DNA of 61,414 nucleotides, the filler included, from Nemertoderma westbladi (taxonomy: Eukaryota > Animalia > Xenacoelomorpha), in the NCBI GenBank assembly GCA_032718475.1. It is 3 parts of 3 records of this genome, joined end to end, with 100 filler letters (N's around TTAATTAATTAA, not from the genome) between each part and the next. Parts side by side here need not be neighbours in the genome. Positions count along the whole stretch, not along the records: positions 23,368 to 52,843 come from JAUCBJ010005403.1; 2 more parts are not named here. The stretch is one strand, 5' to 3'. A program made the position numbers and the translations under genes. Under the pieces are notes generated by a model. That model worked only from the letters and a program-made list of their open reading frames with translations, was not told the origin of the DNA and did not search any database. Positions 16,401 to 43,341 of this stretch are shown here, piece after piece. The stretch's first letter is position 1. Every line of letters starts with the position of its first letter.

Positions 16401-17356
16401 TACAAAGGTAAATAAATATACAGCATATATTGAAGGAACTACAAAGGTAAATAAATATACAGCTTATCTTGAAGGAACTACAAAGGTAAATAAATATACA
16501 GCATATATTGAAGGAACTACAAAGGTAAATATATATACAGCATATATTGAAGGAACTACAAAGGTAAATAAATATACAGCTTATCTTGAAGGAACTACAA
16601 AGGTAAATAAATATACAGCATATATTGAAGGAACTACAAAGGTAAATAAATATACAGCATATATTGAAGGAATTACAAAGGTAAATAAATATACAGCATA
16701 TATTGAAGGAACTACAAAGGTAAATAAATATACAGCTTATCTTGAAGGAATTACAAAGGTAAATAAATATACAGCTTACCAGTGTACCGGTAGGTCCTGA
16801 CTTTCTTACTGGACTGTCTTGTACTATCCGCTCTGTTGTTTCTGTAGTACTGTACTGCTGTACACGCCTTCCATATTCAATTACAACCGTTTTTTGCACA
16901 CTAGCCACACCCATTATTTTGTAAATTGTTTTTTTTTGTATTGTTATTTCAATCTTCACCAGCCTTATTATTGTATTTTGTATTTAGTACTGTCTTTCAC
17001 TAATTTTCAGGTATTTATTTGTTTTTGCTTTGAAAATGATTATTGTTTAATAAATCGAAACGTCAGCTGTTTTTTAGAATCTTTATTTCTCAAATCATGA
17101 AGTTTAAGTTATTTGCGCTGTTTATTGTTGCCTTAATAAGCTTCAGGTTCCCAGTAACTCAAACTCTATCATATACAGCTTATCTTGAAGGAATTACAAA
17201 GGTAAATAAATATACAGCTTATATTGAAGGAACTACAAAGGTTAATAAATATACAGCTTAACTTGAAGGAACTACAAAGGTAAATATATATACAGCTTAA
17301 CTTGAAGGAACTACAAAGGTAAATATACAGCATATATTGAAGGAACTACAAAGGTA
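10497..17356. repeat. Satellite, 39-bp monomer (TACAGCATATATTGAAGGAACTACAAAGGTAAATAAATA) with a 35-bp deletion variant; interrupted at 16779-17170
   Basis: About 170 visible copies. This array is the source of all the 'LCSSFNICCIFIY' ORFs in the track. Confidence 0.97.
16779..17170 (+). mobile_element. 392-bp insertion in the satellite, possibly a Penelope-like pLTR fragment with a variant hammerhead motif
   Basis: Flanked by the 12-bp direct repeat ATATACAGCTTA (16767-16778 and 17171-17182). Contains GCT-TTGAAAAT-GATT..AATC-GAAACGTC-AGC at 17027-17067. Confidence 0.5.
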
Positions 17357-17399: not shown

Positions 17400-18179
17400 A
17401 GGACCCACATGACCGTAACTGCAGAAGTAGAGTGTATGGGGATCGAGGTACGGCGGGGCTTGCTATCAGAACGATCTTCGTGACGATAGAGAGAGGCAAT
17501 GAAAAATACAAAAAAAATTGTTGATCCCTTGACTGGCCCTTTGACCAATCATCTACCAATAAGGCATAGGCCTACTGCATAAAGCACATTTTCACTTAAA
17601 GAGAGCTTGGTGGTGCCAAGGGATTACTAGAAGTGGAAAAGTTGTGTAATTAATTGGAGATGAGTGACATAATGATAACTCACCTTCACCATCACAACAA
17701 TAAAGTGCTCGTTCCAGACGACCTATCAAATCGCTGTAAGCTATAACGTACTGCATATCGTGATTCACCCACTCATTAACCAGTGAACGACCAAAAGATA
17801 AACCCAACAGCACAACGACAAACTCCACAATTAGTAGCAATATAAGTGGGATTATTATGTAAAGGAAAGTCCGAGTTATCATAACAGTACGACTAAGCCA
17901 GGCTCTTTGTCGCAAGACACAGAAACAAAGCAGACCTGAATAGAGTAATGGAATAAAACTCGTGAACAATAGTGCATAAAATCCGTTACGGTAGTAAGTC
18001 AATGTCGACGAGCTGACCATAGTGGAGGTGCTGTGATTGTTGATGACATCCAGACTCACTTTCATGGATTTTGTATATTGTTGTGAAACACAAACGCCAA
18101 TGAACGATATAGTAATGATGGGCAGGGCCACAACCCACACCATAACAGCAATTTCATGATATCGTGATCTCGGAAACAT
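17400..18179 (-). pseudogene. Divergent tetraspanin-like four-TM protein, frame broken near 17560-17620 (or a short intron there)
   Basis: ORF 17592-18227 has three hydrophobic helices (..GLLCFCV.., FLYIIIPLILLLIVEFVVVLL) and LERALYCCDG at the position of the tetraspanin EC2 CCG motif. A fourth hydrophobic segment (FFLYFSLPLSIVTKIVLIA) lies in ORF 17311-17559 in another frame. Confidence 0.55.
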
Positions 18180-18318
18180 TATGGAATTATTACTTATGTC
18201 AGTACAGTATGTTACATACAGCAGCAAAACAGTTTAATACAGTTTATAACTATAGATATGGTACCGTACTCAATGGTAGGGATAGTTGCTTTATCTACGC
18301 ATGGCCTACTATATATAC

Positions 18319-18489
18319 GGTCGATTCGCCCTCGACCTTTTCGCCCCAAGTCGATTCACCCCACATTTTAGGGGCATATGGACCTGGGGCGAATCAGTCA
18401 ACTGTCCAAGTCGATTCACCCCAGGTCCATATGCCCCTAAAATGTGGGGAAAATCGACTTGGGGCGAAAAGGTCGAGGGCGAATCGACC
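18319..18489. mobile_element. Near-perfect ~170-bp palindrome (MITE-like)
   Basis: GGTCGATTCGCCCTCGACCTTTTCGCCCCAAGTCGATT..GGACCTGGGG is mirrored by CCCCAGGTCC..AATCGACTTGGGGCGAAAAGGTCGAGGGCGAATCGACC. Confidence 0.8.
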
Positions 18490-18924
18490 CGCACCCTTAA
18501 CCGCCAGGACTACAAACAAACGAAGTCACGAAGTATTCCTAGATTTTCGTGAACCATTTTGAGGATGATTACCTAACAACATCTGGAGCTGTAAACGTGA
18601 AATTGGATTGGTACATGTCTCCCATACCAACCATCGCAGTTGCTGGGACTCCGTCCTCCATGGCTGCCCAGGTCAAACGACCGCGGCGTGAACCCACAAT
18701 TCGAGAGTACCACGCTGACGAGATGTCCCAATTCCACAGACAATTTGCAGTCTCGTCACTTGATGATATTAATGTGGATTGCTGTTCCCCTGGCTATGTC
18801 TTCGACAAAACAACCAATCGCATTCTGATCTAAGAGTTGGATTTGAGTGGCGATATGCCTCGGTTGGGCGGAGCGATACGAATATCGGCAGATTTACGAA
18901 TTAAACTCGAACTAAATCATCGCC

Positions 18925-20345
18925 TCAAGAGTCCCACAAGAAATGAAAACAAATAAGTTGGTGCCAGTTCCTAAGAAGGGCAACCTAACACTCAATGGTT
19001 CTTTTCGGGGAATCTCATTGATCTCGATTGCTGCAAAGCTATACAATAGAATTCTATTAAATCGCATCAGGGATCCCATTGAGAGACTGCTCCATGGAAA
19101 TCAGAATGGGTTCCGTAAAGGTCGTGGGACCATGGAAACCATTTTGGCACTTAGAAGGATAATTGAAGAGTTATCAAAAAAGAAAGACAGGCATCTGGCT
19201 GTTATCTTTGTTGACTTCTTCAAGGCCTTTGATTCAGTCTCCCGCTCACGTATGTTCAGCATACTTTCATTATATGGGATTCCTGATGAAATTATTGCAG
19301 CAATCAGATCAGTATACGATGGTTCGACAACATTTGTGTCTACTGTTGATGGTGACACAGAACCATTTGAAGTGTTATGGGGCGTCCTCCAGGGAGACAC
19401 ACTTGCACCATTCTTGTTCATAATTGTGGTTGACTATGTTCTACGCATGTCCTTAGATCATCATATTGATGATGGGGTGATGATAACTCCACCTACTGGC
19501 TCCAGAAGTCGAGGAAATCCTGCCAAGTACCTAACTGATCTAGACTTTGCTGATGACTTAGGAGTACTCTCAGAATCACTAGAGGGAGCCCAATGGCTCC
19601 TCAGCTCATTAGAACATGCTGCTTCTAGTGTTGGTCTTTTTATTAACTCCAGAAAGACCAAAATTTTGACAGTTAACTTTGAAAGTTCTCAGCAAGTCTC
19701 TGATCGGATGAGCATAAGCTCAAAGGATGGTATGCTTGAGCATGTGGACGACTTCTGTTACCTGGGATCATGGATCCGGAAGTCAGGTGAGGACCTTCGA
19801 ATACGTAAGGGAAAGGAATGGGCAGCCTTGAATAGGCTTTCCAGGATTTGGAAGTCACCGAGAATTAATCGGAAACTTAAGGTCCGATTATTTAGAGCAG
19901 CAGTAGTTCCAGTACTCCTCTATGGGAGTCCATGCTGGGCTCTAACTACTGAGGATACCAAATCTCTGGATGGCACATTCACAAGAACGCTACGCCGGGT
20001 TCATTGTACAGAGTACAATGCACACATCTCCAACCAGACACTATATAACATTGGAGGTGTCTCACACTAGAACAAAATCGCCTCCGCTTTGCAGGACATT
20101 GCTTTCGCCGTGAGGACCAGCCAGTGCATAATCTTGTACTTTGGCAGCCTCATGGAGTGAATAAGCATGGTGGACAGCCCATGACTTTCTTGAGACGCAT
20201 CTTAAAGGACACTGGTCTTGAAGATGCGGATGATCTAGCAATATCATGGGTGATAGGGAGTTGTGGCGGCGCAATTTTGTCGACAAGCCGGCACAGCATT
20301 CTTAAAAATGCAGCTGCAATGCAGCATGCCGATACTAGTAGTAAC
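18925..20345 (+). mobile_element. 5'-truncated RTE-clade non-LTR retrotransposon
   Basis: Flanked by the TSD TCATCGCC (18917-18924 and 20346-20353). Contains the RT ORF plus the RTE-type C-terminus LWQPHG..GGQP..F, and ends in a short TAGTAGTAA tail. Confidence 0.85.
18943..20070 (+). pseudogene. Non-LTR reverse transcriptase, partial (RTE-like)
   Basis: Motifs VPVPKKG..FRGISL, QNGFRKGR, FVDFFKAFDSV, GVLQGDTLAPFLF, DLDFADD and FCYLGS. No endonuclease domain; the C-terminus is frameshifted. Confidence 0.9.
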
Positions 20346-23599: not shown

Positions 23600-24289
23600 A
23601 TTGTTTGTACTGTTATTTACCGTCAGTTATTAATTGTATCTATTTGTTGATGAAATATTGCCCTTTGGAGAATACGGATAAATCACCCAAATTTCCCAAT
23701 TTTCTTGATACACTACAGGTTAGAGAGACAGGCTATATATAACAATTGCGATTTATATTAATGTGGTGTGTATTGAATCTAATGTTATTTAGCAGACCCT
23801 ACATGAGTCAATTGCTGCTCTCTTTATGTGTGATCAAATATACTGACGGTCGGCAGAATAGTGTGCATGATTGTGACTGGTAACAAAGTATTTCCTAAAG
23901 AATACGCCTTATACTTTAATCATAAGCGGTATCGTTGCGTTTAGTATAAGTCCTAGTTCTGTTTAAATAGATAGAGCGCCACGTCCTAAAGGAACTGTTA
24001 ATATTTCCCGAAAGCCAATAATATCTGTCAGAAATTAATTATTAACGATCTATCGAATAATACAGTAGGTTTACACTGCAACCTTACACTGCAATAATAA
24101 AATTTAAGCATCCGAATTCAGCCTCCCGGGTGTAGATCCATCGGGTGAATGATCGCGCATGGGCTGACTTCGGCTAATGTTTTGTTTATTAGCATAAAAT
24201 ATTGTCGTATGCTAAAGGTGTTTTAATTAACTAAAAGACATATAAATTTTGGCAGGTTAAACTGCTAAAGGTCTTCAAAAGCGCGAACA
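23600..24289 (-). mobile_element. Diverged copy of LTR-A (LTR-A'), probably cut by the contig gap
   Basis: Blockwise reverse-complement match to 30064-30745 (e.g. GCGCCACGTCCTAAAGGAACTGTTAATATTTCCC; GGCAGGTTAAACTGCTAAAGGTCT). The match stops exactly at the shared TGTTCGCG terminus. Strand is inferred. Confidence 0.75.
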
Positions 24290-24985
24290 GCGCCTTAGCT
24301 GACAAGTTTTTACCAGCCTTGTTTGGTGTGGTTGTTCCGCAAGCTGATCTGGACCTGTTGTTTCAGCCCGTGCGTCACGGTGGAATTGGGTTAAGTGATC
24401 CAGTGTTCAGAGCTGCTAGTGCGTATCAAGCCTCGAGGGAAGGCACCGAGCTGGTGGTGAGAGCCTTGAAGGAAAAGACTCCCCTATCAGTGGAGGATCA
24501 TAGAACATTGCTACAGGGAACCATCCGTGAAACTAGGTTGAGGGAGGCAGTGTGGGCGAGCGAGGTTCAGACAGTTGTATTGGGGGCAATGGTGCCAGAT
24601 CGAGCGTGATCAGTGAAGCGCCAGCTTTACTCGTAAACTGCTGGCTGGTTGAGTGTGACCCCATTGCTGCTTCATCAGACAGGCATTTCAGCGCAGACAT
24701 TTCGCGACGCCCTGTGTCTGCGGTATGGTTATACTCCCCCGGAGTTGCCATCACACTGTGACGGCTGTGGTGCTATCTTCACCATAGACCACGCCCTGAA
24801 CTGCAAAAAGGGTGGGCTGATATGTCGTCGACATGACGAAATGCGGGATGTGATCGGCGAGTTGTGTGGGTTGGCCTGGTGTACGAGTTCAGTCAAGCGG
24901 GAGGTAGTGCTGCGAGAGGGCCAGTATCTTGAAGACGCGGGAGTCCGAACAGATTTGCTAGTCCGGGGCGTGTGGGCACCACAGG
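24290..24985 (+). pseudogene. CRE-like (RLE-type) non-LTR retrotransposon fragment, post-RT Zn-knuckle/endonuclease region
   Basis: Motifs PVRHGGIGL, FRDALCLRYG, CDGCG..FTIDHALNCKKGG..RHDEMRD and RTDLLVRGVW; frameshifted. Confidence 0.8.
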
Positions 24986-26317
24986 TTTCGCGCCGCACTT
25001 AGCACACCTAGCATCTGAGTAACAGGTCCGCCGTTGGTGTCCTCGTCTGAGACAATTATAACACAACCGCTTATCCCACATGACATCACATCTATCCTTT
25101 AGGGATTTCTTTAAGAATTCATCACACCCACTCAAGCGATGGGGCCCGTCACACAATAGACATTTGGGCTTGATGTTACTTACTTTAACCTGTGCTGTGT
25201 GGTGCACACTTGTTCTTTCCTCGGGCTTTCTTCCATGAATTCTCTTAGGAGACGTGGGAGGAGTTTTTGTTGTCTGTTCTCTCCTGTCACTGGTTCGAGA
25301 CTTAAATTTACTTACGTCTTTAGGTGCTTTGTTGACATAGTAAGATCTTTCGGTGTCTTTCCCGTCGTCTGTATAACACACTGGTGTTACCTTTCTCCTA
25401 GAAACGGGTTTTTCACTTACCTCACTTTCAGGAGTCTTCTCTCTAGACTGTTTTAGGAGTTGTAATCTTACCTCTCGGTTTAAGAATGACAGAAGGTCCG
25501 TCATGGTTGGATCTCTATGTTGTTGGTCCATCAAATAGAGAACCTTTTTGTCCCAGCGAGTACCTACTTCACCCTTTGGCAAAGCTGATGCTAAGGCTCC
25601 TACAACCATGGAATTCTGGTATTCATGAGACTTACCCAACCAGTCTAATTGTCTACAGATCTCCTGAATCTCATCGGAAAACTCTATAATCCCGCTGCTA
25701 AGAAACTTTCGGGGCGCCATTAATTTCGCATACAAATACCGAGCTATGTTAGTCCTATTACCATACCTGATGTTTAGTGTATCCCAAACTTGTCTCAATC
25801 CATCTGGATGTCCAATAAACTTTAGCAGCATTAACTTGGGAGGTCCTTCCAAGCACTCGATGAGGAATCTAAGTCTCTCTCCGTGGGATAGTACGGAACT
25901 CTGTATGTTATCTTTATAATATTCATTAAAAGGTAACCATTTCATCTCATCTCCGTTGAACTTGACGATCTCTCCCACCTTTACCGCTTGACGGGCTTCG
26001 GTTCTAGCCATTTGACGCGTAAAACTTTCTTGGGCCATCGTATTATTTAATATCGAGTTATTGGTATATAAATTTCTTGGATTATGATCAGGTCTATATG
26101 GAATATCATTATCAACAGGTTTATAATTATCCTTAATAGGGTTTACTATAGGAGTTTCTACTTCACTAGCAGTATAGATGCGTGTAGGCTCCACACCTTG
26201 CGCATGAAATACTTCAGACCTAACAGGTTGACACATTGTTACAGGGGGTGGTGGTATACTCCTTTGTATATTTACTAATTTCGCTTGCGTCCTTCTGGGC
26301 TCCTCTATTTGGCGCAC
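24985..26317 (-). pseudogene. BEL/Pao gag C-terminal half, truncated within the third Zn knuckle
   Basis: FNGDEMKWLPF..ERLRFLIECLEG..WDTLNIRYG (DUF1759-like), followed by knuckles CLLCDGPHRLSGC, CYNCLRRGHQRRTC and CAKCG. No pol follows. Confidence 0.85.
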
Positions 26318-27502
26318 CCATGAGGCGGATGCTGTCCCACCACCCTTGGGGCCAGTCTGACTCCGTTTTTATCAGACCGGGCCGGAGGGTAGCCCGATGC
26401 TTCCCGGGTTCAATTTTCAATCCCCTGATCACACCGGCACAGCTCGTCGCGCGTGTAGCCGATCATAGCCATCGTTGATCGGCCACTGTCAACTTACTGT
26501 GGCCTGACTGTACATTGAGCCAACTCAGAGAGTCAACCGGCGGGTGGACCAGTCGATAGCGATCGAGCATCAAGGTTGTCCTTGAGCCAAACCGACGGTC
26601 TTGTCCCAAGTGGGCTTGCGCTACTCAACATGGAATATTGACACGTTTTCACCCGCCTCGCCGGCAGTATTAAGGGGAAGTCGGTTCCGCCAACAATACT
26701 GACTAGCTTAAAAGCTAAGAACAAGTCACCACTTACTAGTCACTGTACACGTGTACTCAACAGATGCTCACAAAATCAAGTACACAACTGTAAACACAAA
26801 ATCGGACACATACCATGCACACACAGAGGACATAATCGGGAAAGACAAATTGGTGACAAAATCAGAGGGGACAAAATTGTATCGACTGATAAAAGAGTCG
26901 AGAGTACCTTATTTTGCTGTCAGGGCAAAATAACTTTGTGTGCACAAAGTATGCTGGGGCGCAGTAAAGATATGGTCCTACTAATAACCAGCGGCGACTG
27001 AACCAACTGGCAAGGTTTCCCACACTCACTCACAGTGGCCATACACACACTCACGTATACCACGTACCCACAGCAACAGAAAGCTCAAGCAAACTGCCAC
27101 TGCTCGTCCACACACAAACCACAGATTCCAAAGTATCGTTCACTCGGACCACACTAAAACACCATCCCCTCCTTGCAGCGGATATTCCAGGTGCTACCTC
27201 CATTCCAATAGTAGTACCAACAGAATCATCAGAATCCTGCCCATTCCGATGCAACACCTCCATTCAAATAGTGCTACCCTGGGAAAAGACACGTGTCAGC
27301 AACCGATCGGAGACAGCAAAGAGTCTGGTCAACTCATATATACCAAACATAGACCTACCACATAGACCACAGATCACACTAAGCCACCACCCCTACTGTG
27401 TACAGGACTAGCAGTACGGCAACAGGCCGATGAGACGTGTACCACAGCACCATGTTGATTCATGGTTCGCAAGACACAAGGGCCTTCAGTAACTCCCCTG
27501 CA

Positions 27503-29437
27503 CTATATAGAGTATTTAACGTGCCCCCAGACCCTCACGAGTCCGCCGCCGCCTGTTCGCGACACCCCTATAGAGACCTCACCTCTTAAGGCATCGCGTT
27601 CTAACGCAATACTCTGCTGCACTTCTTGCAACTCTAACCTACCTTCTCTTACTGTTCCCTTGAACTGTTGCACAGTCTCCTGCATCTGCCCGAGCAGGAG
27701 ATCCATCCCCCGCCGTCCCTCATCCACCCACTCAACCGCCGAAGCGGGAGCCGCCAACATAGTAGTGGGTAGACGAGGGACGACGGGCGATAAATCATTG
27801 ATGTCTCACTCGGTGTCCAGGGCAGGAATTGTCTCAGGGGCTGTTCTACTGGGCACAGGTAGTTTAGTGCTGTGCAAAGGGAATTTAGAGCTGGGTTCTG
27901 GAAGTACAGGGGTCTCTATCACAGAGGGGGTGGCTTCGAGAACAGGACTAATTATTTCAGGCTCATCTACTATAGTAGGGAGTCTTTCTACTCTAATAAT
28001 TTGATCTGAAGGCTCAGGATTACTTAGATCTACACTAGCTAGTTGCCTTCTCACGGCTGGAGGCAAATCAGGCAATTTCTGCCGGTGCAGCGCCCTTCTA
28101 CATCCGCTGGAACGAGATTTATTTCCTCTACCTTCAGGATCTGTTGTATCGCCTTCATCAGAGGATGTAAATCCCTGTCTCTTGGGAGTAGATCGACTTA
28201 GCAGCTGCATCTGAGTAGCTGTTCTCTGTTTATTTAAGTAATCTTGCTTCATTTGAAGATTTTCCAACTCTAGTTGGGCTGTCTCTTCAGATGCCCTCCG
28301 TTCTGCTTCTACCACTGCCTCTGCCACTTTTCTTTCAGCTTCTGCCACCTTTCTTTCAAATTCTGCCGCTGTCTCATCCGCTTTTCTTTCCACTTCTGCA
28401 GCTGCCGCTGTCGCTTTTCTTTCAAATTCTGCCGCTGTCTCTGCCGCTGCCGCTGCCACTGCCTTTCTGTCTTCTATCTGTTTTTTCTTTAGTTGTTCTT
28501 CCTGTTCCATAAGGATGAGGATGCGTTCATCAAATTTAGCCTGCTCAGCGGCTAACATTTCCGCATCTAACGAGTCCAACACCAATTTGGCTCCCTCACT
28601 ATTGGGGCGAAGTCCAGCTAGCCGTCTCCTTAACTCTTTGTCACCTATAAATCGTTGATAGTCCGACAGATAGATGTCAATAGCATCCTTCTTCGGAGGT
28701 TTCTCTGATGTGACGTCGCTTTCCACCTGAGAAAAGGTAGCGTCTGTTGATTCTCCGTGGGTCATGCGCTCGGTTAGCTGAGCTTTCCATTGTGTCGTTT
28801 CTTGGACTTTAAGACTCACCCGTTGGAACCAAGTCTTTACGGCTATCTGCAACGACGTGTCTTGGCTTCTCTTCGAGGCATCCTCAAAGGCTGAAAGGAT
28901 TAGTCTGATCCTTAAGATTCGTTCTCGAACTTGATAAATCAGTTCTCCCTGCTCTTGAGGTCTTTGACGTTGTTGAAACAGGTGTTCCTCTAAGCGCTCC
29001 AAAGAGCTGAAGAATCCCTGGACATATTCTGCTGCCGACCTCTTCCACACCGCTGGATCTCGAGTGTTTCTTACTACTCCCATCCTGTATAAGTCTACCC
29101 AGGCAGCTTCCGATAATTTAAATGGGAGTCCGGGTCCGGGGAAGTTCCATTGCGTCTCGACAATAGACTTCAGTTCCTCCATCGTGTATCCCGCATAACT
29201 GTCCCTGGTCGATCGCTTACTTCTTGCCCAATCGATTGGATGTTCTTCTACAGTGATCAATACTCTAGCGAGTACGGCTCCAGGAAGAATTAGAAGTGGA
29301 TCTGGATAAACCGCTTCTGTTATCCTTGCTCCGATCTCGGGTGTCAACTCTACAGTATCTGAACTACTGGAGCTATCTGGCTGTTGAGAAATAAGTACCG
29401 GGGTTAATTTAACTATAACGGTATGTATAACAAGCAC
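27503..29437 (-). pseudogene. Coiled-coil-rich ORF, probably the N-terminal part of the same BEL/Pao gag
   Basis: The 543-aa ORF continues in frame past a single TGA (27806-27808) into ORF 27503-27760. Same strand and frame as the gag ORF, with AAEFERK coiled-coil repeats. No diagnostic motif, and ~1 kb of unexplained sequence separates it from gag. Confidence 0.45.
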
Positions 29438-31109
29438 AATTACTGTAGGAATAAACTTAGGGGTATGTATGTTGCGAATACTCGCATAGACTCTGAATAA
29501 TAAATAAATACGCTACCCGTACAGACTACACAAATAAAATACAAACCGAACGCTGGCAGACTACTATCAAGCCTAAATAAACTACAGTATATGCAGACTC
29601 CGAAATGGTTAGTTAGTATGCGTTCTAACTGAGTAGTACGACTTATTCTTTCGGGGGGGATTTACCTTACAGCACTGGATACCCCCACCTTCCTAACTAG
29701 TACTTTATCGGACATACACTCTACACACACTGCAATCTCTTCAGACTTAACAACAGCCAGACAACAATCCAGCCTAAAAATTATCTGTACAATTTGAGCA
29801 GGCTTACACGCCTTCTGCTCAATATTACACTTACATATAAATAAAACTGACAGAAATAAGTAAAATCCCAATAAAAAACCAGGGAGGCCGTCCCTGATTA
29901 AATATCAAGACCTACCGGTATATAATTATCAAAATCGAATAATACTGCTGTACCTGTAAGTACCGGTTCGGGTAGTCAGGCATTCAGGCCTACAGCTTAC
30001 CGGTCGACCGGTACGTTTGACTTTATTGCCTACGGTGCAATAAAGAATCTGGAAATCTATTATTGTTCGCGCTTTCAGACCTTTAGCAGTTTAACCTGCC
30101 AATTTTAGGTGTTCTCTTGTTTATAAATCGACTTTAGCCTATAACAATTATTTAATGCACATGAAGTAACATTAGCCGAAGCCAGTCTATGCGCGATCAT
30201 TCACCCACAGTTAAGGGAGACTGGATTCGGATGCTTTGACCTTATTGCAGTGTAGACCTACTGTATTATTCGATTGATCACTACTATATAATCTCTGACA
30301 ATATTATTCACTTTCGGGGAAATATTAACAGTTCCTTTAGGACGTGGCGCTTTAAGTATAAAACAGAGTTATGACTTATACTAAACACAACGAGATGGCT
30401 ACTGATTTTCGTAAATAGAGCATTCTTTAGGAGATGCTTTATTATCTGTCACACTGCTGCATACGATTTCACACTGCTGCACACTGATCTGCCGACCATT
30501 ACTGAATTTGATCATATATAAGGAGGATAGCAACTGACACATGTAGGGATTATAAAATAGCATTTAATGCACACTAAAACCACTGTAATGTAAGTCGCAA
30601 TTGCTATCGGTAACCGGTCCCTCTAACCTTTAGTAATCAAGAAGATTGGGGGTTTTATGATTATTTATCGATATTCTCCCAATATAACAACATATCCATC
30701 AACATATAACCATTAATAACAGACAGTAAACAGAAGTACAATAATGCGGTGATATTCAGCCAGTATCGGTAGTACCAGTACCGCAGTTGCAGGTGCAGTA
30801 TCAAAGTTGTTCAGTCAGTGCAGACTGCAGATAATAGATTTACGTTCTTATAATCAAAGCCGTCTAATGTTGGCCAAAGTCTGAAACTTCTACCGAAGTA
30901 CAGAAAAATCCTAAGCTGGTGTTCTGGGCTTAGAAAAGATACACACTGACTGAATTGCGTGGGTTTCTGTAGGCACTGTCCAACACAAAGTGAAAATCGC
31001 TCTGATTGGCCGAGCAGAACAAAGAACAAAGAAAAGCTCCACGCTGGCAGTAAATCAGCTGACAGATTTCGTCATCTGAAACTACACTCTATTTAGAGTA
31101 TTTGGCGTA

Positions 31110-31240
31110 TTGCGGCATAAAATGGCTTGTTATGTCCGCTAAAACACCTACAGGGTACATTGCGGAGAAAATGGCTTGTTATGTCCGCTAAAACAACTAA
31201 ACAGTTAATTGCGGAGAAAATGACTGGTTATATCCGCAAA
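31110..31240. repeat. Three ~50-bp tandem units (TTGCGGAGAAAATGGCTTGTTATGTCCGC..) inside LTR-A
   Basis: TGCGG starts at 31111, 31161 and 31210. Confidence 0.8.
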
Positions 31241-32144
31241 AGCTTTTACACTAGGGTGGAGTGAAAAATATTTTTTTTCAAATATTTCACTCTCCCACTC
31301 ACTAATGGACATCAATTGTTGAAAAAACCGCGTATGCCAGGTTTCATCCAAAAATATTTATCCCTTACCCCGGTACCACATATTACAATTTTTATAACGA
31401 AAATTGCAAGTATTTCGAAAAAAATTTTGTTCGCAAAATCTATCCTCCCATTCAGATTTTTAATGCATGCGACTTGAAGGTGCAAAATATAAAATTTTAG
31501 TCTATGAGAATGACCCCTTACCCCAGCACCACAAATTGAAAATTCAAGAATAAAAAGTAAATGTTCTCTTCGTACATGGCCTGGCCAGCTATGGCAAATC
31601 AATAACATATTTCACATATTTAAAACCACATAATTTTTTTTATTCGAATTTATAATACTGTACCCCAGATAATAATTTGAAACAATATTATTTTCGGTGA
31701 CTTTGAAACAAGTATTAGTTTATGGTGATACATTTATATTTGTGTAATAATCGCGTTTGGTTTCAAACATAGGTCGCTCTTTGCGTGATACAAATGTCTG
31801 GCGAATTAGACCACTACGTGATGTCCTACCACACACTGAAGCAGAAGCTTCAGTCACCAACTTAACGAGGCGTTCAACAGCTTGTGTGTGACAAGGAAAT
31901 CCAGCTACATCTGGCTTTATGTCGTACAACTACGGATATCCAATAAACTTTTCTGCTGGAATATCAGCTGTCAGTGGTGGCTCAAAGCGATTCATACGCC
32001 AGAATTCCAAGCTCACGAGATCTATATAGCTGGCTGCTTCAAAGTTCAGTTGAGGTAATACAAATCGACGAACCATTGATCTTGGGTCTATTCGAGCCTT
32101 TTCTCTGGCCATCATTATTCTACGATATCCAAGTTCACGAATAG

Positions 32145-33756
32145 TGTTGCCGTTATCCCAACACCAGGGGGGAAAAACGCCGATGCTGGAGACGTGACTT
32201 TACAGACCACCGAGCCCCGGCCAGTCACCGGATATTGATTGTGGAGAAGGAATGTTTTCTGAGATGCAAGTTTGCGGTTGATAAAAAGCTGCATTAGTTG
32301 GATATACTCTTTAATGTAACTTCCTATAGTTGAAACCTGTTCAACATCATTGAAACTTGATAAAGAATAATTTTGGGCTTCCCCAAATCAATATACACCA
32401 AATATTCACAATAATTATACACGATAATATAAATCCCTACGGTATATTATTTAATTACCCGCTGTTCGCTCAGAATTTTAGCCTACCTAATGTTCCCCAG
32501 ATTTTCCCTCGGTCCCAGTCTTAGTGCCGTAGTGTCGGTGTCGGTCGACCCTGTCGCGTGTCCGTTCCACCCCTCACGAACCCCGAAGGGAACGATCATC
32601 GAGAACCAGCACGGCTTGGCTAAGGGTCGGTCCAGTCGGTAGACTCTGTCGCGTATCCGTACCACCCCTCTCGAACCCCGAAGGGTTCGGTCATCGAGAA
32701 CCAGTACGGCTTGGCTAGGAGTCTGTCGTGTCGGTGGACCCGTTCGCGTGTCCGTTCCACCCCTCACGAACCCCGAAGGGTTCGATCATCGAGAACCAGA
32801 ACGGCTTGGCTAGGGGTCCGTCGTTTCGTCACAGAAACCCAACCACCTAGGCTTTCCGAGTCCCTTTCAGGCTCGTAGTCGCTTCGGCAGCCGAGAAACT
32901 GCTCCGAACAGTCGGTAGGCCAGTAGAGTCTAGTCGAGTCTAGTCCTTTGTCTTTCGACCCCATCGCGTGTCCGTTCCACCCCTCACGAACCCCGAAGGG
33001 AACGATCATCGAGAACCAGTACGGCTTGGCTAAGGGGTCTGTCGTCGGTTCCCGTCGCAAATCCCAGTACAAGCAGTCAGCGTTCCGAGTTCTTTTCAGT
33101 CTCGTAGTAGCTGCCGTTGACCAGAGACCGCTAAGGGCACTTCTCGTCAAACCCGTCCTGTGGCCAGCCCTTTCGCATGTCCGTCCCACCCCTCGCGAAC
33201 CCCGAAGGGATCGGTCATCGAGAACCAGTACGGCTTAGGTCAGGGGGCAGTCGTTAGTTGGCCACCCGTTCGCGTGTCCGCTCCACCCCTCACGAACCCC
33301 GAAGGGAACGATCATCGAGAACCAGAACGGCTTGGCTACTAAGGGGCCGTCGGTGCCCGTCGCAAATCCCTGACACAAGCAGTCAGCGGTCCGAGTTCTT
33401 TTCAGTCTCGTAATGGCTGCTGTTGGCCAGGGACCGCTAAGGGCAGTCCTTGTCCTTTAGGCCTGGCGCATTACCAAATCCACCCCTACAGGCAGCAGGA
33501 AGTTGGCCAGGGCCTAATAGTACTCAGGCTAACCTGAATACTGCTTGCATTTTCCATCCCCCCCTGGCCCTTATAACTATGAAATTATTCCCGTACCCTG
33601 TAAGTTGCCCCAAAGTTCGCCCATAAATCGCCCCCAGTTTATTGAATGTGCCCAAAACCCATGGTCCCGCACCCAGTAGTAATATCGGAATAATCAATTT
33701 TAAATAAATACAAAAATATTCAACTCGCGTTATGGAAAGTTGAAATACCGCGAACA
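32145..33756 (-). mobile_element. Solo LTR-B (1612 bp, BEL/Pao-like) inserted in the hAT transposase
   Basis: Termini TGTT...AACA (TGTTCGCG on the minus strand, as in LTR-A); 5-bp TSD AATAG at 32140-32144 and 33757-33761. Excision restores the transposase frame. Strand is inferred. Confidence 0.85.
32554..33346 (-). repeat. Array of six ~73-bp structured repeats (K-turn + C(UUCG)G hairpin) with variable spacers
   Basis: Units start at 32554, 32649, 32744, 32964, 33173 and 33270. Minus-strand core: CCGTWC..TTCTC-GAT-GA-Y-CGWWCCC-TTCG-GGGTTCG-N-GA-GGGG..GNRCGG. Confidence 0.8.
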
Positions 33757-36700
33757 AATAGCTTGATTCTTGTCGCAACAAAACGCCACCAATATGTTCT
33801 CCGTATGGGAGAAAAAGGCATTCCTTTGTATTGTTCTATTAACTACTGCTCGCAGATCATCTGGAAGGTAGCGGGATAATGAAATGGAATTAAAAACAAG
33901 TTTTGGTCCATTATAGCATTGCCAATGTTCCTTAATGTGGAACCACATGGGAGTGTATACTTTTACAACAAACGTTGCCAATTCCAGCAAGTTTCTACCT
34001 GGGTCTGAGGTCGAAACATAAAGCCGTAATATGCGGCTAGCGAAGGTGAGCCATCGACTCTGAACCATCTTTCCAGGTGAACGATTAGCCAAACTCTGAG
34101 AACATACTCCATTTATAACACTGTTGAAAATTTCGTACAAGTATTTTTGGTCACTGTTAAGATCTTTAGGCATTTCTGTTATTAGGCTTTGATCAGAAAT
34201 ACAAATTGGTTGAAATTGTTTAAGTTCCAAATTCTCACAGTTAACAAGGGCCTTACCAATAGGGCCAGTAAAAACGCCCGGTCCCATGGAAGTGCCATCC
34301 AGATGAAGAAATAAATGTCTGAGCGGCAGCTCATTAAAGTGGAGTAGGCACACATGCCATTGAAGTGGTTTTTTGAGTTCACATTCTGCGATTCTAATTA
34401 TACCATTAATCTTCCCTGTGTTGACTCCAGTCCCATCACAACCAATAACACGAACACTACTGAGGTCCACACTTTCCTTTATTGCCTTAAAAATATCAGT
34501 AGCTTTACCAGACTTAGGTGAAACATGATCGATGTAAACCGACCCGGGTTCAGAGAGTAAACTGATGTGCTCCTCAACTATGAGCTTTCGGCGAAACTTT
34601 CCATCGATCTTCTGAATGACCATAGTCTTGTCTTTTCGCCCATCAAAGTACAACCCAGAGAGAGCACTATCAAACTTCATTACTTGGCGGCCACTACGAC
34701 GTCGTTATATCCTATAACGATCAAGGGCTCTCCCTAACTTTGGATATGGTTTCCCGCTACTCGAACATGCAGACATGTGATCACATGATCGAAATGGGGG
34801 TACAAAATCCTCGTCGTCGGAATTGTTACTGTCATATTCAGGTGAAGAGGGTACATCGGATTCATCAGATACATCGGGTTCATAGGGTAAATCGGATTCA
34901 GAAGCTCGACGCATCCTTAATTTTCGCTTTAACCCAAGAAGATTTTTCCTAGTAGACGCCCAATCTGTTCTTCCAATGACCATTGCACGTTTATTAGTTT
35001 GATCCTCGTAAAAAGCACGTTCACACGCGGGAATATTGTTGACATCAGCCACTACAAATATATTATCGAAACTCTCCATAAACTCTGCCCTTTTTCTTTC
35101 AAACTCTGCTGCACGCCGCTCTAGTTTCCTTGGAATTCGTTCAACACTTTTACGTGAATCATACAGTCTTAATAGTTTTTCAGCTATTTTATATCGTCCG
35201 ATTGTTGGAATTGACGCAGTATTATATATCTTTATAAGTTTTTCTGTTAGCTGTAAAGCGGCAGTTTTATTCGCTACATCATATCCTGTGAGTTTCTTAG
35301 ATTCAGACTTTTCCCAAATAAATGCCCGCATTACATCAATTTGAAGAGGCAAGACATTTTCACGTAGTGGACCAGGTGTTCCAAAAAGTTCATGAGTGAG
35401 CTGCTTGCGTGTAGTCGGCCCCCCAGGTGTTGTTACTTTGTCTGTAGACATTCTATGATATATGTAGGTAGATACACTGAATGATAAATCAAAACTATAT
35501 TATTTACCGGTACCGGTAGGCAAAATGAATAAAGACTGCTGATGCTAAATTTTAAGAGCAGACATATAGTAGTTTGAATTTCCCTCTGTAATAGGCCAAC
35601 AGCATATTGATAGAAAATGCATTAATCGTTGTTGGCGAGTGCGGCTAAATAAACAAATAATACATATACTGTATTGTTACATTGATATATTTTGTTAACG
35701 GCGCCATATTAAAATAATTTAGAAAAATATATTTTCATTTTTATTGAATTTTCGCTTTGTGGTGCTGGGGTGAGGGATCATTCTCATAGACTAAAATTTT
35801 ATATTTTGCACCTTCAAGTCGCATGCATTAAAAATCTGAATGGGAGGATAGATTTTGCGAACAAAATTTTTTTCGAAATACTTGCAATTTTCGTTTTCGT
35901 TATAAAAATTGTAATATGTGGTGCCGGGGTAAGGGATTAATATTTTTGGATGAAACCTGGCATACGCGGTTTTTTCAACAATTGATGTCCATTAGTGAGT
36001 GGGAGAGTGAAATATTTGAAAAAAAATATTTTTCACTCCACCCTATTTTACACCTAACTACAGTACTTTTACCGGTAGTGTAACGTGATTGGCTACTGTC
36101 CTGAGCAATACATTGTTTAGGCTGTACCGGTACCGGTCACTGTTCTGTATTTTGCAGTTGTGTCTGTATAAATTCAAATTTATGTTTTATTTTATTTAAT
36201 AATCGCCTGAAGAAGGGTTTAGGTTTAGGTTTAGGAGGGCGAATAATAATAATACAAAACGTTTTTATTGCTGAGGGAAGACCCTCTATCCTTAACATAT
36301 TATATAAAACATGCTTGTTGGGACACACACCACATCCAATCCTTGGCCTTAACCTAAACAGATTCCTTTTAGCCTGTATAGCTGGGTAGGGTATAGACTA
36401 TGTATGTAGTTACTTCCAACTGCAGATAGGGTGGCAGGGGGGGGGGGTGGTCTTGACCCAATCAAAATTCATCCTTCTCCAGGGGAAAATCGACACAACA
36501 GCCCCGTCTGTTCTATTGACTCTATTGATGGAAATCCCCCCCCCCCCCCCCCCCCCACGTTTCAGCAAATGTGGACAGAGCCGCAACTATTCGTGATACA
36601 GAGCGATAGGATTTGTTGTGTCATTGTATCTTTTTTAAAACACATCACCTATTTTTTATTTTATTTTACCGGTTTCACAAAATTATATCACAAAACTCAA

Positions 36701-38501: not shown

Positions 38502-41500
38502 TGTAGGATTATGGTGGGGGATTACTGGCTAGTACTGCACGACTGGGTAAGTACTAGGCCTATGGCATACTTATTTCATATTTATATTATATTGGCGAAC
38601 CTGATGTATTATATTTCAACCCAATGTCTATCATATATGGCGCTGCGAGTTACTCTCGACCTCGTATAGACTAAAGAATACAATAACGGATGGCCTATCA
38701 GCAAACCAGCATTGGCAGAAACCTTAAAAGGTTGGAATTATAGGATATAGTATTAAAATACCGGTTGTCAGGTTGTTAGGCCTACGAGAATACCGGTACT
38801 GCAAACTACAGTGAAGTTTGTCGCCAATCCTATCCTTTAGACTAGATTGTCACAATAGGGCCCAAACTTGAAATCAAACTGGAAGATCCAGCTGATGGTA
38901 ATATACCGATACCAATAAGAATAATGCCTTATGTGTTTCGCTTGAGCGATCTTCCAAAATTGGATCTCGAGGTGGAACGCTGCTCGGAATTTGAAGCATG
39001 GAAGAAGAAATGGAACTCATATCGACATCTTTCTGAATTAGTGCGGGAACCAGCAAAAAAACAGCTACAAGTACTCAATCTCTGTTTGTCTAATGAAACC
39101 TTAGCTATGGTAGACAACTTAGGCTTAACTGCTGAGCAGGCAGCAGATCAAGAGCAGGTACTTAGGCACCTTACAGCCCACATCAAAGGCCTGATAAATG
39201 AAAGTGTAGAGCGACGTCGTTTACGACAACGGCGACAACAGACTGGTGAGTCGTTTGACGATTTTCTTATCTCCTTAAGAGATCTTGTGAAAAACTGTAA
39301 CTTTTGCAATGAACTATGCAAAAGTAAGGCAATACGTGACCAAATAATTGATGGAATTATTGACACAGATACGTCGGAGTTGCTTCTTTTAGAGAGGGAC
39401 CTTACATTAGCGGATGCTGTAACAAAATCCCAAGCTTTGGAGTCAGCCAAACGTAATAATTCGAACTCAAATGCCATGGGGACGGGCACAGAAGTTAATG
39501 CATTAAACAGAAACCAGAGAGCTTCTTTTGGTACCGGTACTCCAGGAACCACTATTAATAGAAACAATAGATTTACATCTAGCAGTTCGGGTAGAAATAA
39601 TGGAAGGCCTAATATTCCACACTCTTCAACAGGGGCACATACCAATACATTTATTTGTACTAAATGTGGGCGGGCAGGATGTACCTTCAGATATTGTCCT
39701 GCACTATCGGCTACATGCCATAAGTGTGGCCGAAGGGGTCACCTTCAAGCAGCTTGTAGGACAGTTTCAAATACTAGATGGGATGGTTTCCAAGCAAATT
39801 CACTATTTGTGAACAATTGGGATCCATCTGAGACTGATCACTCTGGACAAGAGCAAGGTCAGTTCTCATACTTACACATGATCACAATTAATGGATTACA
39901 AAGTCAATCATCAGCCCCAAAAATAAATTTGGTCGCTAGAAGCTTGAATGGGTCAACAGTAATAAATGCTTTACCAGACACCGGTGCCGATATTTGTGCC
40001 GCAGGATTTTATTTGCTAGCCAAGCTAAATGAATGTGTAGAAAACATTTTTCCTTCAGAAATCAATACAACTGCGGCAAATGGTCAAAGAATGATATCCA
40101 GTGGATTCATACCAGTTAATATTAGTTATAATAACATAGAAACCACCGTTCGGTTTTATTTTTTCAGTGAATTGCACATTCTGTCATTCAGTCTTCACAT
40201 TTTGCACCCAGATTATCCCTTACCATTAGTCAATGTGAGTTCTGTAGCATACAGCAAGAAAGAACAATCACCTGTAACAGAAAATCCATCAGCAGAGAAT
40301 ATTGTAGTAGGCCAGCTCCAGGAACCCTTGAATACAATTCGTGTTGACGATCTTAAGTTAAGGTTCCCGACTGTTTTAGATGGGCAGATTCGCACTATGC
40401 CTGGGGAAATATTTAAAATTCATCTTACAGAAAATGCGAAACCCTTTTGTGTACATACTCCCCGGACTGTGCCATTTGCATTAATGGATAAATTACAGGC
40501 AGAAATTGAATTACTAGTAAACCAAGGTATTATTGCCCCAGTTACTGAACCTACAACATGGTGCTCACCAATTGTAGTTACCCCAAAGAAAGATTCTTCA
40601 AAAATAAGATTGTGTATAGACCTTTCTAAACTAAACAAATATGTCAAGCGAGAATATTACCAATCGACAACTCCAGCCTTAGCTGTTGCTGATATATCGA
40701 AACAGGCAAAGTTTTTTACAGTCATAGACGCATGGAAAGGCTATCATCAGTGCCCAATGGATGAGGAAAGTCAATTACTGACTACATTTATAACTCCATT
40801 TGGTCTATTTAAATTTTTACGTGCACCATTCGGAGTGTCCTCCATATCTGAACACTACGATAGACGCATGGCTGAGGCCTTGGAAGGAATTTCAAATATC
40901 CGACGTGTTGTTGATGACATCATTATATATGATGAGACACCAGAGAAACATTCAAAACATCTCATCGAAGTTTTCAATCGTTGCAGAGAGCGTGGAATCG
41001 CAATCAGTGTTGATAAAATGCAGTTATTTAAACGACAAGTAACTTTTGCAGGATATATTGTAAGTGAAAGTGGTTACAAGGTTGAACCTAGGATCACAGA
41101 CTCCATGCTTAACTTTCCTGCTCCAAGCTCTAGGACCGACATCCGTTCATTTTTTGGACTTGCAAATCAAGTAGCTAATGCAGTTCCAAATCTCACAGAA
41201 ACACTGAGTCCTTTACGATCACTCTTGTCCAGTAAACAAGAATTTCTTTGGACAGAAAATCATGATTTAGCTTTCGTGAAAGCAAAGAAGGTGTTATCTG
41301 AGGTGGATACATTATCATTTTATGACACTGATCATGAAACCAGACTGACGACAGATGCAAGCCGTGTTGGCTTAGGTTTTATACTGGCGCAGAAATCTGA
41401 AGGAACATGGCACCCGATCATGTATGGATCAAGGTTTTTGCACGATGCAGAAACAAGATATGCTGTTGTGGAACTGGAAATGCTGGCTGTGGCATGGGCT

Positions 41501-43341
41501 ATCTCCAAATGTGGACCATTTTTGTATGGCTTACCTCACTTTCAAGTAATAACAGACCACTATCCCATTGTGCCAATTATCAACAGCCACAGACTTGATG
41601 AAATAGAAAATCCACGTTTGCAGCGACTTAGAGCTAAGATAATGGCCTACAACATAACAGCTCAGTGGATCAAAGGTAGCAACAATGCAGCGGATGATGC
41701 CTTATCTCGTCATCCATCCACACCGGCAGAAATGATAGATGCCTTAGCAGAGGATGGTGTTTCAACTTTGGAACTTCGAGCGTTACAAACTGGGCCAAGA
41801 GAATATGAGAATCTTCGCATAACAGAACTAAGGGAGGCTGCAGAGTTGGATCAAAATTATCAAAGTCTCAGCAAACTCATCCTTAATGGTTTTCCAGACA
41901 ACAAATCCAAGATATGTGATGAGATGAAACCATACTGGAAATTTAGAGCAGACCTCTCTGTAGATGACGGTTTAGTACTCTGTGGATGCCGTCTTCTAAT
42001 TCCACAAGCACTGCGTAACACAATGTTGTATAGGATACATGAAGCTCATCAGGGGATCCAAAGGTTTCAAGCACGTGCTAGGTTAACGATTTTCTGGCCA
42101 GATATTGATGCAGATATTAAGATATATGTGGAATCATGTAAACACTGTCAGGATCATTTACCATCACACCCAGTAGAGCCTCTAATTTCTAAGCCCAGAC
42201 CTGAACGTCCATTCCAACAAATAGCTGCAGACTTTGGGGCCCATGGTGGAGAAAACTATCTCATCATAGTAGATTGTCTGACGGATTGGCCAGAAGTGAT
42301 CAGATGCGACAAGGATACAACAACAAGACAACTCACTTCGCAACTTCGTAATTTGTTCACTCGCATTCCTACACCAGATATATTATGGAGTGATGGTGGA
42401 ACACAATTCACCTCCAAGAAGTTTAAGGACTTCCTGAAAGACTGGGGAATTATCCATAAAGTGAGTAGCCCTTATCACCCATCATCAAATGGGAAAGCAG
42501 AATCGGCGGTTAAATCAGCAAAGAAGATCCTAATTGGATGTTTTCGCAATGGGAGACTGGATGAAAATACCCTTGCTAGAGCCTTAAAACAATATCGAAA
42601 TACTCCATGTAATCGTGATAGCCTCTCACCTGCACAGAAGCTTTATGGTAAACCAATCCAAGATTCCTTACCTGCTCATAGGTTATCATTTGATCCGCAG
42701 TGGCAGCGGGCGGCGGAAGTTGCAGAGAAACAATACTCAAGTCGTCAATCTTATCAAGAGGAATATTACAATTCGAGGTCACACCCTCTTCATGAGATTT
42801 GTGTTGGAACCCATGTTGCAATACAAAATGTTGTGACAAAACGGTGGGACATATATGGTATTGTTACAGAGATTAGTCCAAGAAGGCGATATTTTGTGAA
42901 GACTATTTCAGGCCGGGTTTTGGTGCGGAATAGGCGCTTTATAAGAAGACGTGTTCCGATGTCGATTCCAATGGGGATCAGAGGGAAATTGGGCGACTCT
43001 GTTGGATTGCCGGAAGTAGTCAAATCTCAGCCACCGGTGAATCCTGAAATCCCACGGCGAAGTAATAGGACTGTGAAAAAGCCGAGCCGCCTTGGTATTG
43101 AAGACTTAAGTTGGCCTTAGATCTACGTTATTACTATTAACTCAATAAACTCTTATTATTTTAGTCCTTAATTTAAACAATTTAATTAAGAACTCGAGGG
43201 GAGATGTAGGATTATGGTGGGGGATTACTGGCTAGTACTGCACGACTGGGTAAGTACTAGGCCTATGGCATACTTATTTCATATTTATATTATATTGGCG
43301 AACCTGATGTATTGATATTTCAACCCAATGTCTATCATATA
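38502..43341 (+). mobile_element. Full-length Gypsy LTR retrotransposon (Mag-like), recent insertion
   Basis: LTRs 38502-38637 and 43205-43341 differ by one visible 1-bp indel. TSD CATGT at 38497-38501 and 43342-43346; PBS TGGCGCTGCGAG at 38638; PPT GAGGGGAGA at 43196-43204. Confidence 0.95.
38924..43120 (+). CDS. Gag-Pol polyprotein (gag-PR-RT-RNase H-IN), 1398 aa
   Basis: CHKCGRRGHLQAAC knuckle; LPDTGAD protease; IDAWKGYHQ..APFG..VVDDII RT; TDAS..ELEMLAV..TDH RNase H; HEAHQG..CKHC and AADF..WSDGGTQF..SNGKAES integrase. Gypsy domain order. Confidence 0.95.
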   Translation: MPYVFRLSDLPKLDLEVERCSEFEAWKKKWNSYRHLSELVREPAKKQLQVLNLCLSNETLAMVDNLGLTAEQAADQEQVLRHLTAHIKGLINESVERRRLRQRRQQTGESFDDFLISLRDLVKNCNFCNELCKSKAIRDQIIDGIIDTDTSELLLLERDLTLADAVTKSQALESAKRNNSNSNAMGTGTEVNALNRNQRASFGTGTPGTTINRNNRFTSSSSGRNNGRPNIPHSSTGAHTNTFICTKCGRAGCTFRYCPALSATCHKCGRRGHLQAACRTVSNTRWDGFQANSLFVNNWDPSETDHSGQEQGQFSYLHMITINGLQSQSSAPKINLVARSLNGSTVINALPDTGADICAAGFYLLAKLNECVENIFPSEINTTAANGQRMISSGFIPVNISYNNIETTVRFYFFSELHILSFSLHILHPDYPLPLVNVSSVAYSKKEQSPVTENPSAENIVVGQLQEPLNTIRVDDLKLRFPTVLDGQIRTMPGEIFKIHLTENAKPFCVHTPRTVPFALMDKLQAEIELLVNQGIIAPVTEPTTWCSPIVVTPKKDSSKIRLCIDLSKLNKYVKREYYQSTTPALAVADISKQAKFFTVIDAWKGYHQCPMDEESQLLTTFITPFGLFKFLRAPFGVSSISEHYDRRMAEALEGISNIRRVVDDIIIYDETPEKHSKHLIEVFNRCRERGIAISVDKMQLFKRQVTFAGYIVSESGYKVEPRITDSMLNFPAPSSRTDIRSFFGLANQVANAVPNLTETLSPLRSLLSSKQEFLWTENHDLAFVKAKKVLSEVDTLSFYDTDHETRLTTDASRVGLGFILAQKSEGTWHPIMYGSRFLHDAETRYAVVELEMLAVAWAISKCGPFLYGLPHFQVITDHYPIVPIINSHRLDEIENPRLQRLRAKIMAYNITAQWIKGSNNAADDALSRHPSTPAEMIDALAEDGVSTLELRALQTGPREYENLRITELREAAELDQNYQSLSKLILNGFPDNKSKICDEMKPYWKFRADLSVDDGLVLCGCRLLIPQALRNTMLYRIHEAHQGIQRFQARARLTIFWPDIDADIKIYVESCKHCQDHLPSHPVEPLISKPRPERPFQQIAADFGAHGGENYLIIVDCLTDWPEVIRCDKDTTTRQLTSQLRNLFTRIPTPDILWSDGGTQFTSKKFKDFLKDWGIIHKVSSPYHPSSNGKAESAVKSAKKILIGCFRNGRLDENTLARALKQYRNTPCNRDSLSPAQKLYGKPIQDSLPAHRLSFDPQWQRAAEVAEKQYSSRQSYQEEYYNSRSHPLHEICVGTHVAIQNVVTKRWDIYGIVTEISPRRRYFVKTISGRVLVRNRRFIRRRVPMSIPMGIRGKLGDSVGLPEVVKSQPPVNPEIPRRSNRTVKKPSRLGIEDLSWP

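Follow-up and report, generated by a model that had tools for sequence, protein, structure and literature searches.

Why should the long terminal repeat (LTR) of a retrotransposon contain a row of hairpins built like protein-binding RNA motifs, and are those hairpins what they seem? The question was raised by an earlier note on the window, by which we mean the whole 61,414-nucleotide stretch of repeat-rich animal DNA from Nemertoderma westbladi analyzed here. It described six units, on the minus strand and inside a solo LTR, each combining a kink-turn with a C(UUCG)G hairpin, and pattern and strict scans both agree with it. The array is confirmed as a real and unusual feature, correctly described in that note, although it has more RNA structure than the note saw and less proof of function than the note implied.

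Six copies of a composite motif

Six copies of a 95-nt unit lie within 32538-33348 on the minus strand, inside an LTR of 1,612 bp, with spacings between successive units of 95, 95, 220, 209, and 97. The pattern GAUGA-N8-UUCG-N8-GA matches the window six times, always on the minus strand (33290-33316, 33193-33219, 32984-33010, 32764-32790, 32669-32695, and 32574-32600), while 0 of 100 shuffles contain one. Scanned strictly for kink-turns that carry a cUUCGg cap, the LTR likewise has six sites on its minus strand and none on its plus strand, and the remaining window has none; sites of this kind turn up in 4 of 5,000 shuffles of the LTR and in 0 of 20,000 shuffles of the units. When the loop is left out, a lax kink-turn scan returns 25 window matches, 19 of them outside the array, so rarity belongs only to the combination of loop and exact core. 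We name the units A1 through A6 along the minus strand. The unit numbers of the earlier note run along the plus strand, and under that numbering its unit-by-unit account of the 3b.3n pairs and outer-stem states is correct. The units differ from one another by 1-8 of 65 core columns; as near-identical duplicates they point to one origin, not six independent ones.

Relatives were sought in several collections. A covariance model of the six units scores them at 87-117 bits and retrieves no further unit from the window, the next match being at 13.6. Rfam, searched over 31000-36500 with E up to 10, gives five weak matches, none on the array. In viral contigs the pattern scan finds 0 relatives: 26 single matches occur, all of them short of a kink-turn with three or more C-helix pairs and four or more upper pairs, and the type-B core described below and the start of the LTR have 0 matches each. 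Prokaryote genomes yield 0 relatives of the array. A single metagenome match is a bacterial coding sequence with only a 23-base pattern in common, and was rejected as a relative. A protein-coding repeat is ruled out by unit spacings (95, 95, 97) that are not multiples of three, and a hammerhead ribozyme by the CUGANGA core, which has 30 matches in the window and 0 within 32145-33756.

A solo LTR inside a DNA transposon

The LTR occupies 32145-33756 (minus strand) and reads TGTT...AACA; its termini are of the TG...CA type with a short inverted repeat, a combination used as a solo-LTR criterion (PMC3601003, in part). It is flanked by a perfect 5-bp target-site duplication, CTATT on the minus strand, whose upstream copy lies at 33757-33761 and whose identical downstream copy lies at 32140-32144. 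Contigs from two runs, X1 and X4, contain the empty site, joining 32139 to 33757 and skipping 1,617 bases. The solo-LTR reading in the earlier note is borne out by the duplication and the empty site; its limits for the LTR are corrected to 32145-33756 from termini, flanks, and empty site. A candidate pair of limits, 33780-32338, with an imperfect duplication, was dropped in favor of the perfect duplication and the empty site.

The element entered a DNA transposon (31247-36050, minus strand) with terminal inverted repeats of about 300 bp, whose transposase-like frame stops at 33757 and continues at 32144. That frame has one in-frame stop downstream of the LTR insertion, and copies of the transposon uninterrupted by the LTR are present in runs X1 and X4. 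The transposase has no Pfam family, and the nearest ESM Atlas clusters are unnamed and eukaryotic, most commonly from Arthropoda.

The LTR family is clearly abundant. Relative to the flank, summed contig depth in runs X1 and X4 is hundreds- to thousandfold over the LTR, and in single contigs about 19-fold, both figures being depths and not copy numbers. Target duplications of BEL/Pao elements measure 5-6 bp, a length common to Copia and some Gypsy elements; the 5 bp seen here fits BEL/Pao and is not diagnostic. By blastn the LTR has no likeness to the BEL/Pao, Gypsy, or other elements of the window, and searches for related loci that started from the BEL/Pao gag and the Gypsy pol of the window gave no match.

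Transcribed strand and layout of the LTR

The best indication of the sense strand comes from run X6, in which a contig of 886 bases (depth 5.66) spans the LTR but for 716 skipped bases, keeping a single kink-turn unit. It extends 23 bases past 33756, and in that flank a minus-strand tract of seven G residues ends two bases before the LTR. Runs of seven G so placed occur at 186 of 122,364 window positions (0.15%), and runs of eight purines at 1,081 of 122,364, which puts the chance level at 0.15-0.9%. The tract is a polypurine tract at the place expected before a 3' LTR, which makes the minus strand probably sense. The minus strand also clusters RNA motifs, with six cUUCGg loops, three GAAA loops, repeated UA/GA loops, and one AGUA/GAA, and its computed fold contains 49 G.U among 325 pairs, vs. 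29 among 320 on the plus strand. Purine tract, tetraloops, and G.U pairs thus support the choice of the minus strand as the RNA made in the earlier note, and we regard sense orientation as very probable, chiefly from this one contig of depth 5.66. Run X6 is only presumed to be of RNA, and because its contig spans from the purine tract into U5, it carries no information on expression. The flank in which a primer-binding site would follow a 5' LTR is limited to five bases, in two X1 contigs.

A putative U3 of 214 bp (33543-33756, minus strand) contains the TATA-like box TATAA at 33575-33571; the position of the array downstream of it, as given in the earlier note, is supported. Compared with the initiator consensus, GCAGT is initiator-like; it marks a putative start site at 33544, which follows the TATA-like box by 33 bases. 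A 10-bp hairpin extends from this putative start site (33519-33542, minus strand) and is TAR-like by position only. On the same strand, ATTAAA at 32450-32455, followed by a U/GU-rich tract, is a candidate poly(A) signal which, if used, would set the end of R near 32430. The layout would then be a U3 of 214 bp, an R of about 1.1 kb with the whole array, and a U5 of about 280 bp, and the array is likely to lie within R, so that the genomic RNA would carry it at either end. The U3 also contains AATAAA (33643-33638, minus strand), which precedes the TATA-like box by 68 bases. In HTLV-1, a folded R brings a poly(A) signal in U3 to the cleavage site. The AATAAA could serve in an HTLV-like manner, as an alternative to the ATTAAA at 32455.

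Two kinds of predicted hairpin

Along the minus strand the predicted hairpins follow the order B1, A1, A2, B2, A3, B3, A4, A5, A6. Each A unit is predicted to form a rod of about 85 bases, in which a basal stem, a UA/GA loop, 2 bp, a 4x4 loop, and an 8-bp stem lead to a distal part made of a 2-base bulge, a 4-bp C-helix, the kink-turn, a 7-bp stem, and the UUCG loop. U.U occupies 3b.3n in A1 (33259-33348), A3 (32956-33040), A4 (32736-32819), and A6 (32546-32629); the most diverged unit, A2 (33165-33249), has C.C and A5 (32641-32724) has C.A. The inner stem is fully paired in A4 and A5, and A5 also has a compensated basal stem. At the base of A1, AGUA/GAA (33340-33337 with 33271-33269) carries the sarcin-ricin signature and matches a sarcin-ricin example (PMC4551918, in part).

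The B hairpins end in GAAA loops. B1 (33354-33445; loop at 33403-33400) has two UA/GA internal loops, B2 (33048-33140) has its loop at 33097-33094, and B3 (32830-32902; loop at 32868-32865) is diverged. B1 and B2 have the same basal UA/GA loop as the A units, and a UA/GA loop near the tip occurs in all three B rods. The earlier note had overlooked the basal stems with compensatory changes, the three GAAA-capped type-B hairpins, and the recurring UA/GA (sarcin-ricin-like) loops.

Class of the kink-turn

All six units have the standard kink-turn signature reported in the earlier note, a 3-nt bulge and then tandem G.A and A.G pairs. The helix before the bulge, previously given as UUCUC/GGGG, is present with only 4 bp (UCUC/GGGG, two of them G.U) and has C:G at -1b:-1n throughout. 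The pair at 4b:4n is C:G in 6/6 units, and that at 3b:3n is U:U in four, C:C in one, and C:A in one. Past 3b:3n the helix forms seven of seven pairs in two units, six in one, and five in three, so that the 7-bp inner stem described before is complete in two of the six units and not in the other four.

Published folding rules rate C:G at -1b:-1n and at 4b:4n as favorable to folding in magnesium, U:U at 3b:3n as intermediate, and C at 3b as good (PMC8191799, PMC5689011, PMC4382518, each in part). Both departures from U.U in the array are to 3b = C, the good-folding state under these rules. With this combination of C:G pairs and U:U, C:C, or C:A at 3b:3n, the units look self-folding, in the manner of ribosomal kink-turns, and not like box C/D. 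Under these rules magnesium would suffice for the predicted kinks to fold, and protein would then fix them. Box C/D motifs keep G:C at 4b:4n (PMC5689011, in part), and the units of the array, all six with C:G there, with G-N-G-A, and with no CUGA box D, would by the same rules not build a box C/D snoRNP. They do share with the box C/D kink-turn GAUGA on the bulged strand and, in 4/6 units, U.U at 3b:3n, but have a 7-bp stem and UUCG loop in place of guides. SECIS elements have a longer upper helix and an unpaired AA(R) apical motif; the units do not fit that description, their 7-bp stem being closed by UUCG, and no Rfam match falls on the array.

Kt-7, the U4 5' stem-loop, and the Actinomyces-1 kink-turn likewise have a 3-nt bulge, tandem G.A/A.G, and C:G at both -1b:-1n and 4b:4n. 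The Actinomyces-1 kink-turn has the same three determinant pairs as A2; in the part of its description available, it folded in magnesium and bound L7Ae. The array differs from standard kink-turns in occurring as six tandem copies in a mobile element and in having a competing, non-kinked register, and it is known here from sequence.

That competing register is favored by nearest-neighbor folding in 6/6 units. It pairs UUCUCG with the strand of the non-bulged (second) GA, giving a 6-bp helix with a 5-nt bulge, and forcing the kink-turn instead costs 4.0-7.5 kcal/mol on cores and 3.8-7.3 kcal/mol on full units. The C at 3n of A2 also suits it, and it is a genuine competitor of the kinked fold. 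Only A4 (z -3.46), A5 (z -2.54), and B1 (z -3.98) clearly beat shuffles; the other four kink-turn units (z -1.30 to +0.08) do no better than shuffles, and the 1-kb region has z -1.27 on the minus strand (3/20 shuffles as good) and -1.01 on the plus strand. The nearest-neighbor model scores no kink-turn contacts, non-canonical motifs, or protein. Because such motifs go unscored, the poor folding scores weaken the kink-turn reading and do not refute it, and we lean toward the kinked register as the one adopted.

Variation among units and in the population

Within the core 10/65 columns vary, vs. 22/32 outside it. None of the 13 motif columns (bulge, G.A, cUUCGg) varies (P = 0.088); if the C-helix and 4b:4n are added, 0/23 columns vary (P 0.008), in a set chosen after the fact. 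The invariance of bulge, GA, and cUUCGg claimed in the earlier note is true of 6/6 units, and among recent duplicates, at P = 0.088, it counts for little as evidence. Facing pairs vary on both sides in 2/20 cases (P 0.053). When the structure is considered in full, 88.1% of its 168 cells are paired, and 4/28 pairs change on both sides, three of them in the basal stem. Shuffles equal the array in 33/500 cases by pair count, 14/500 by cell count, and 10/500 by score, figures that are not probabilities and that come from six related copies; slid controls show 0-1 double-changed pairs and 35-54% pairing. The view that variation respects the structure thus holds for the basal stem, with its compensatory changes, but not for the inner stem, where changes break pairs in 4/6 units.

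Among the run variants listed inside the array, we examined 17, of which 12 come from a list with a further 42 rows and five from the single-unit comparison below: seven keep a pair, four are unpaired, five break a pair of the computed fold, and one is unmapped. The five include one at the kink-turn 3n and two inner-stem U.U states. A two-base deletion in the UUCG loop makes up 1.8% (X1) and 1.5% (X4) of summed depth. A comparison of single-unit variants shows them at five places, none at G.A, bulge, or loop; because its list omits the window's own differences at 32785 and 32800, this blank was not counted as conservation.

Diverged relatives retain cores with changed arms, as judged by eye. 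In one diverged unit (depth 2.2 in X6, 11.8 in X1) the changed arm before the bulge breaks the alternative register and keeps four kink-turn-register pairs, with a rare U.G at -1b:-1n and a 3' strand that is partly visible. A diverged type-B relative (runs X3 and X6, aligning at 33080-33111 and 32854-32888) keeps a type-B GAAA core of about 32-35 bases within new, unrelated arms that are complementary to each other; in X3, ten left-arm bases are by eye the exact reverse complement of ten right-arm bases. It may represent another LTR family with the same module.

The depth of the unit core relative to the rest of the LTR, in ratios of 8.1, 9.2, and 18.5 that are not copy numbers, suggests that multi-unit forms dominate. 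The one-unit LTR of the X6 contig makes a need for six sites doubtful. The earlier note had proposed that the array could load several proteins; six sites are not required, as unit number varies down to that single unit. We find it likely that the hairpins are under selection as RNA.

Proposed role and alternatives

The reading we favor, with a probability of roughly 0.4, is that the array is a selected RNA module whose role would be to steer the RNA of the element by recruiting a host protein of the L7Ae family, probably Snu13. Binding of such a protein to the array in the cell is a tentative proposal. Snu13 would be the most likely partner, rather than eL30 or SBP2, going by general knowledge of their preferences. 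Transcription from the TATA-like promoter would place the array at the 5' end of the RNA, and the 3' LTR would place it at the 3' end; the rods would fold, the kinks would form or be captured by Snu13/15.5K, and the coated retrotransposon RNA might be routed for export, localization, or packaging. The array most likely grew, and would shrink, by template switching or unequal recombination between units, and such gain and loss might tune the number of kink-turn sites. An extended form of this proposal, which we hold to be on the doubtful side, would have a tunable, multivalent R-region scaffold of kink-turns coat both RNA ends with Snu13/15.5K, borrowing the assembly machinery of snoRNPs or the spliceosome to route or shield genomic RNA. 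This would then be a first case of a mobile element hijacking proteins of the L7Ae family, and its RNA might belong to a wider class with multiple kink-turns.

The kinks might instead be architectural, giving a compact fold with GAAA and UA/GA tertiary contacts that is read by the element's own Gag or another protein for dimerization or packaging, with no L7Ae-family protein involved. The folding rules do group these kinks with ribosomal and riboswitch ones that fold unaided, not with the protein-dependent box C/D or U4 kink-turns, and several other architectural motifs adjoin them. We think this unlikely, however, as short stems in hairpins closed by UUCG have little besides the kink to dock, and the great majority of kink-turns bind L7Ae-family proteins (PMC8191799, in part). 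A more skeptical account holds that a GC-rich bulged hairpin in the non-kinked register was multiplied by template switching, its unit number and perhaps its motif being neutral. It gains from the preference for the alternative register in 6/6 units, the weak folding z-scores, a unit number that varies from one upward, the loop-deleted copies, and the tandem R repeats known from Pao (discussed below). It fits poorly with a kink-turn signature that is rare by chance, with the compensatory changes in basal stems, with the diverged relative that breaks the alternative register and keeps the kink-turn one (at low depth and with the rare U.G at -1b:-1n), and with the dominance of multi-unit forms by depth (ratios of 8-18, not copy numbers), and we consider it improbable.

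A third role for RNA would be ribosome recruitment, the R copy at the 5' end permitting internal initiation despite a long folded leader. The putative leader, with 12 AUGs (six of them within kink-turns) and a fold of about -400 kcal/mol, would block scanning. Viral IRES elements contain sarcin-ricin-like and GNRA loops, but we know of no IRES architecture made of repeated equal modules. The array resembles no Rfam family, the limits of the leader are themselves putative, and this role seems quite unlikely. Farther still from our preference is a function as DNA, either as enhancer or insulator repeats or as plus-strand, single-stranded hairpins with a C-GAA-G loop. The plus strand has CCCGAAGGG at each loop, and in DNA the sequence C(GAA)G forms a stable mini-hairpin. 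Transcription can also be regulated by tandem repeats in U3 (PMC3601003, in part). The array, though, is placed after the TATA-like box when read in the sense direction, the three units tried fold weakly as DNA (-6 to -13 kcal/mol), and the G.U pairs, tandem U.U, and GAAA loops make sense only as minus-strand RNA; we judge a role as DNA very improbable.

Recruitment of an L7Ae-family protein has partial parallels in known systems. No kink-turn in an LTR was found in our literature search, outside which most subscription papers lay; the earlier note, too, knew of no such module in BEL/Pao LTRs. In the archaeal l7ae 5' UTR switch, as proposed here, a leader kink-turn stem-loop is reshaped by protein, but that switch has a single site, autoregulates the binding protein, and uses a bacterial-type ribosome binding site (PMC6298567, in part). 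The retroviral RNA transport elements (the CTE of MPMV, the MTE of MusD, the RcRE in U3, and the LTR-derived MER11 CTE) are cis-acting structures located within LTRs or close to them, through which proteins controlling unspliced RNA are recruited, and they supply our functional model; the available part of the source mentions no kink-turn (PMC11379458, in part). In Pao, tandem repeats lie in the R part of an arthropod LTR (PMC554778, PMC3118150, both in part), a likeness to the array by description only. The retroposon RNAs BC1/ID and Alu/SRP carry tandem G.A motifs and are transported through hnRNP A2 (PMC4033767, PMC5579392, both in part); they differ from the array in being of SINE type, with a single motif that, as far as those sources extend, is not a standard array of kink-turns with 3-nt bulges.

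Little is known about how the unspliced RNA of invertebrate LTR retrotransposons is exported, selected, and protected. The kink-turn array points to a specific host partner, approachable with a 60-base RNA and a standard protein, and natural LTRs with one to six units provide a built-in dose series. If binding proves true, a link would exist between retroelement RNA and the factors that assemble snoRNPs. Should the kinks serve architecture alone, this would still be an unusually motif-rich LTR RNA, with kink-turn, cUUCGg, GNRA, and sarcin-ricin-like elements, absent from Rfam.

Other elements in the window

A Gypsy-type element at 38502-43313 (plus strand) has a 1,424-aa open frame with reverse transcriptase (RT), RNase H, and integrase, direct repeats identical over 109 bp, and a purine tract before the right repeat. 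It inserted recently, and blastn shows no relation between it and the studied LTR. On the minus strand, a BEL/Pao-type gag remnant (DUF1759) and a 568-aa frame that lacks a Pfam match, at 24896-26368 and 27809-29512, nest between inverted repeats at about 23857-24283 and 30068-30468. At 18319-18489, upstream of a non-LTR RT frame (18916-20067), the two 77-bp arms of a near-perfect inverted repeat are separated by a spacer of 17 bases. Large satellite arrays occupy 3478-4244 (period 51), 6812-10101 (34), 10498-16775 (39), 52946-55095 (35/54), and 57094-58422 (19). At 17592-18233 (minus strand) there is a hydrophobic frame of 213 aa with a CCDG motif, which we take to be tetraspanin-like.
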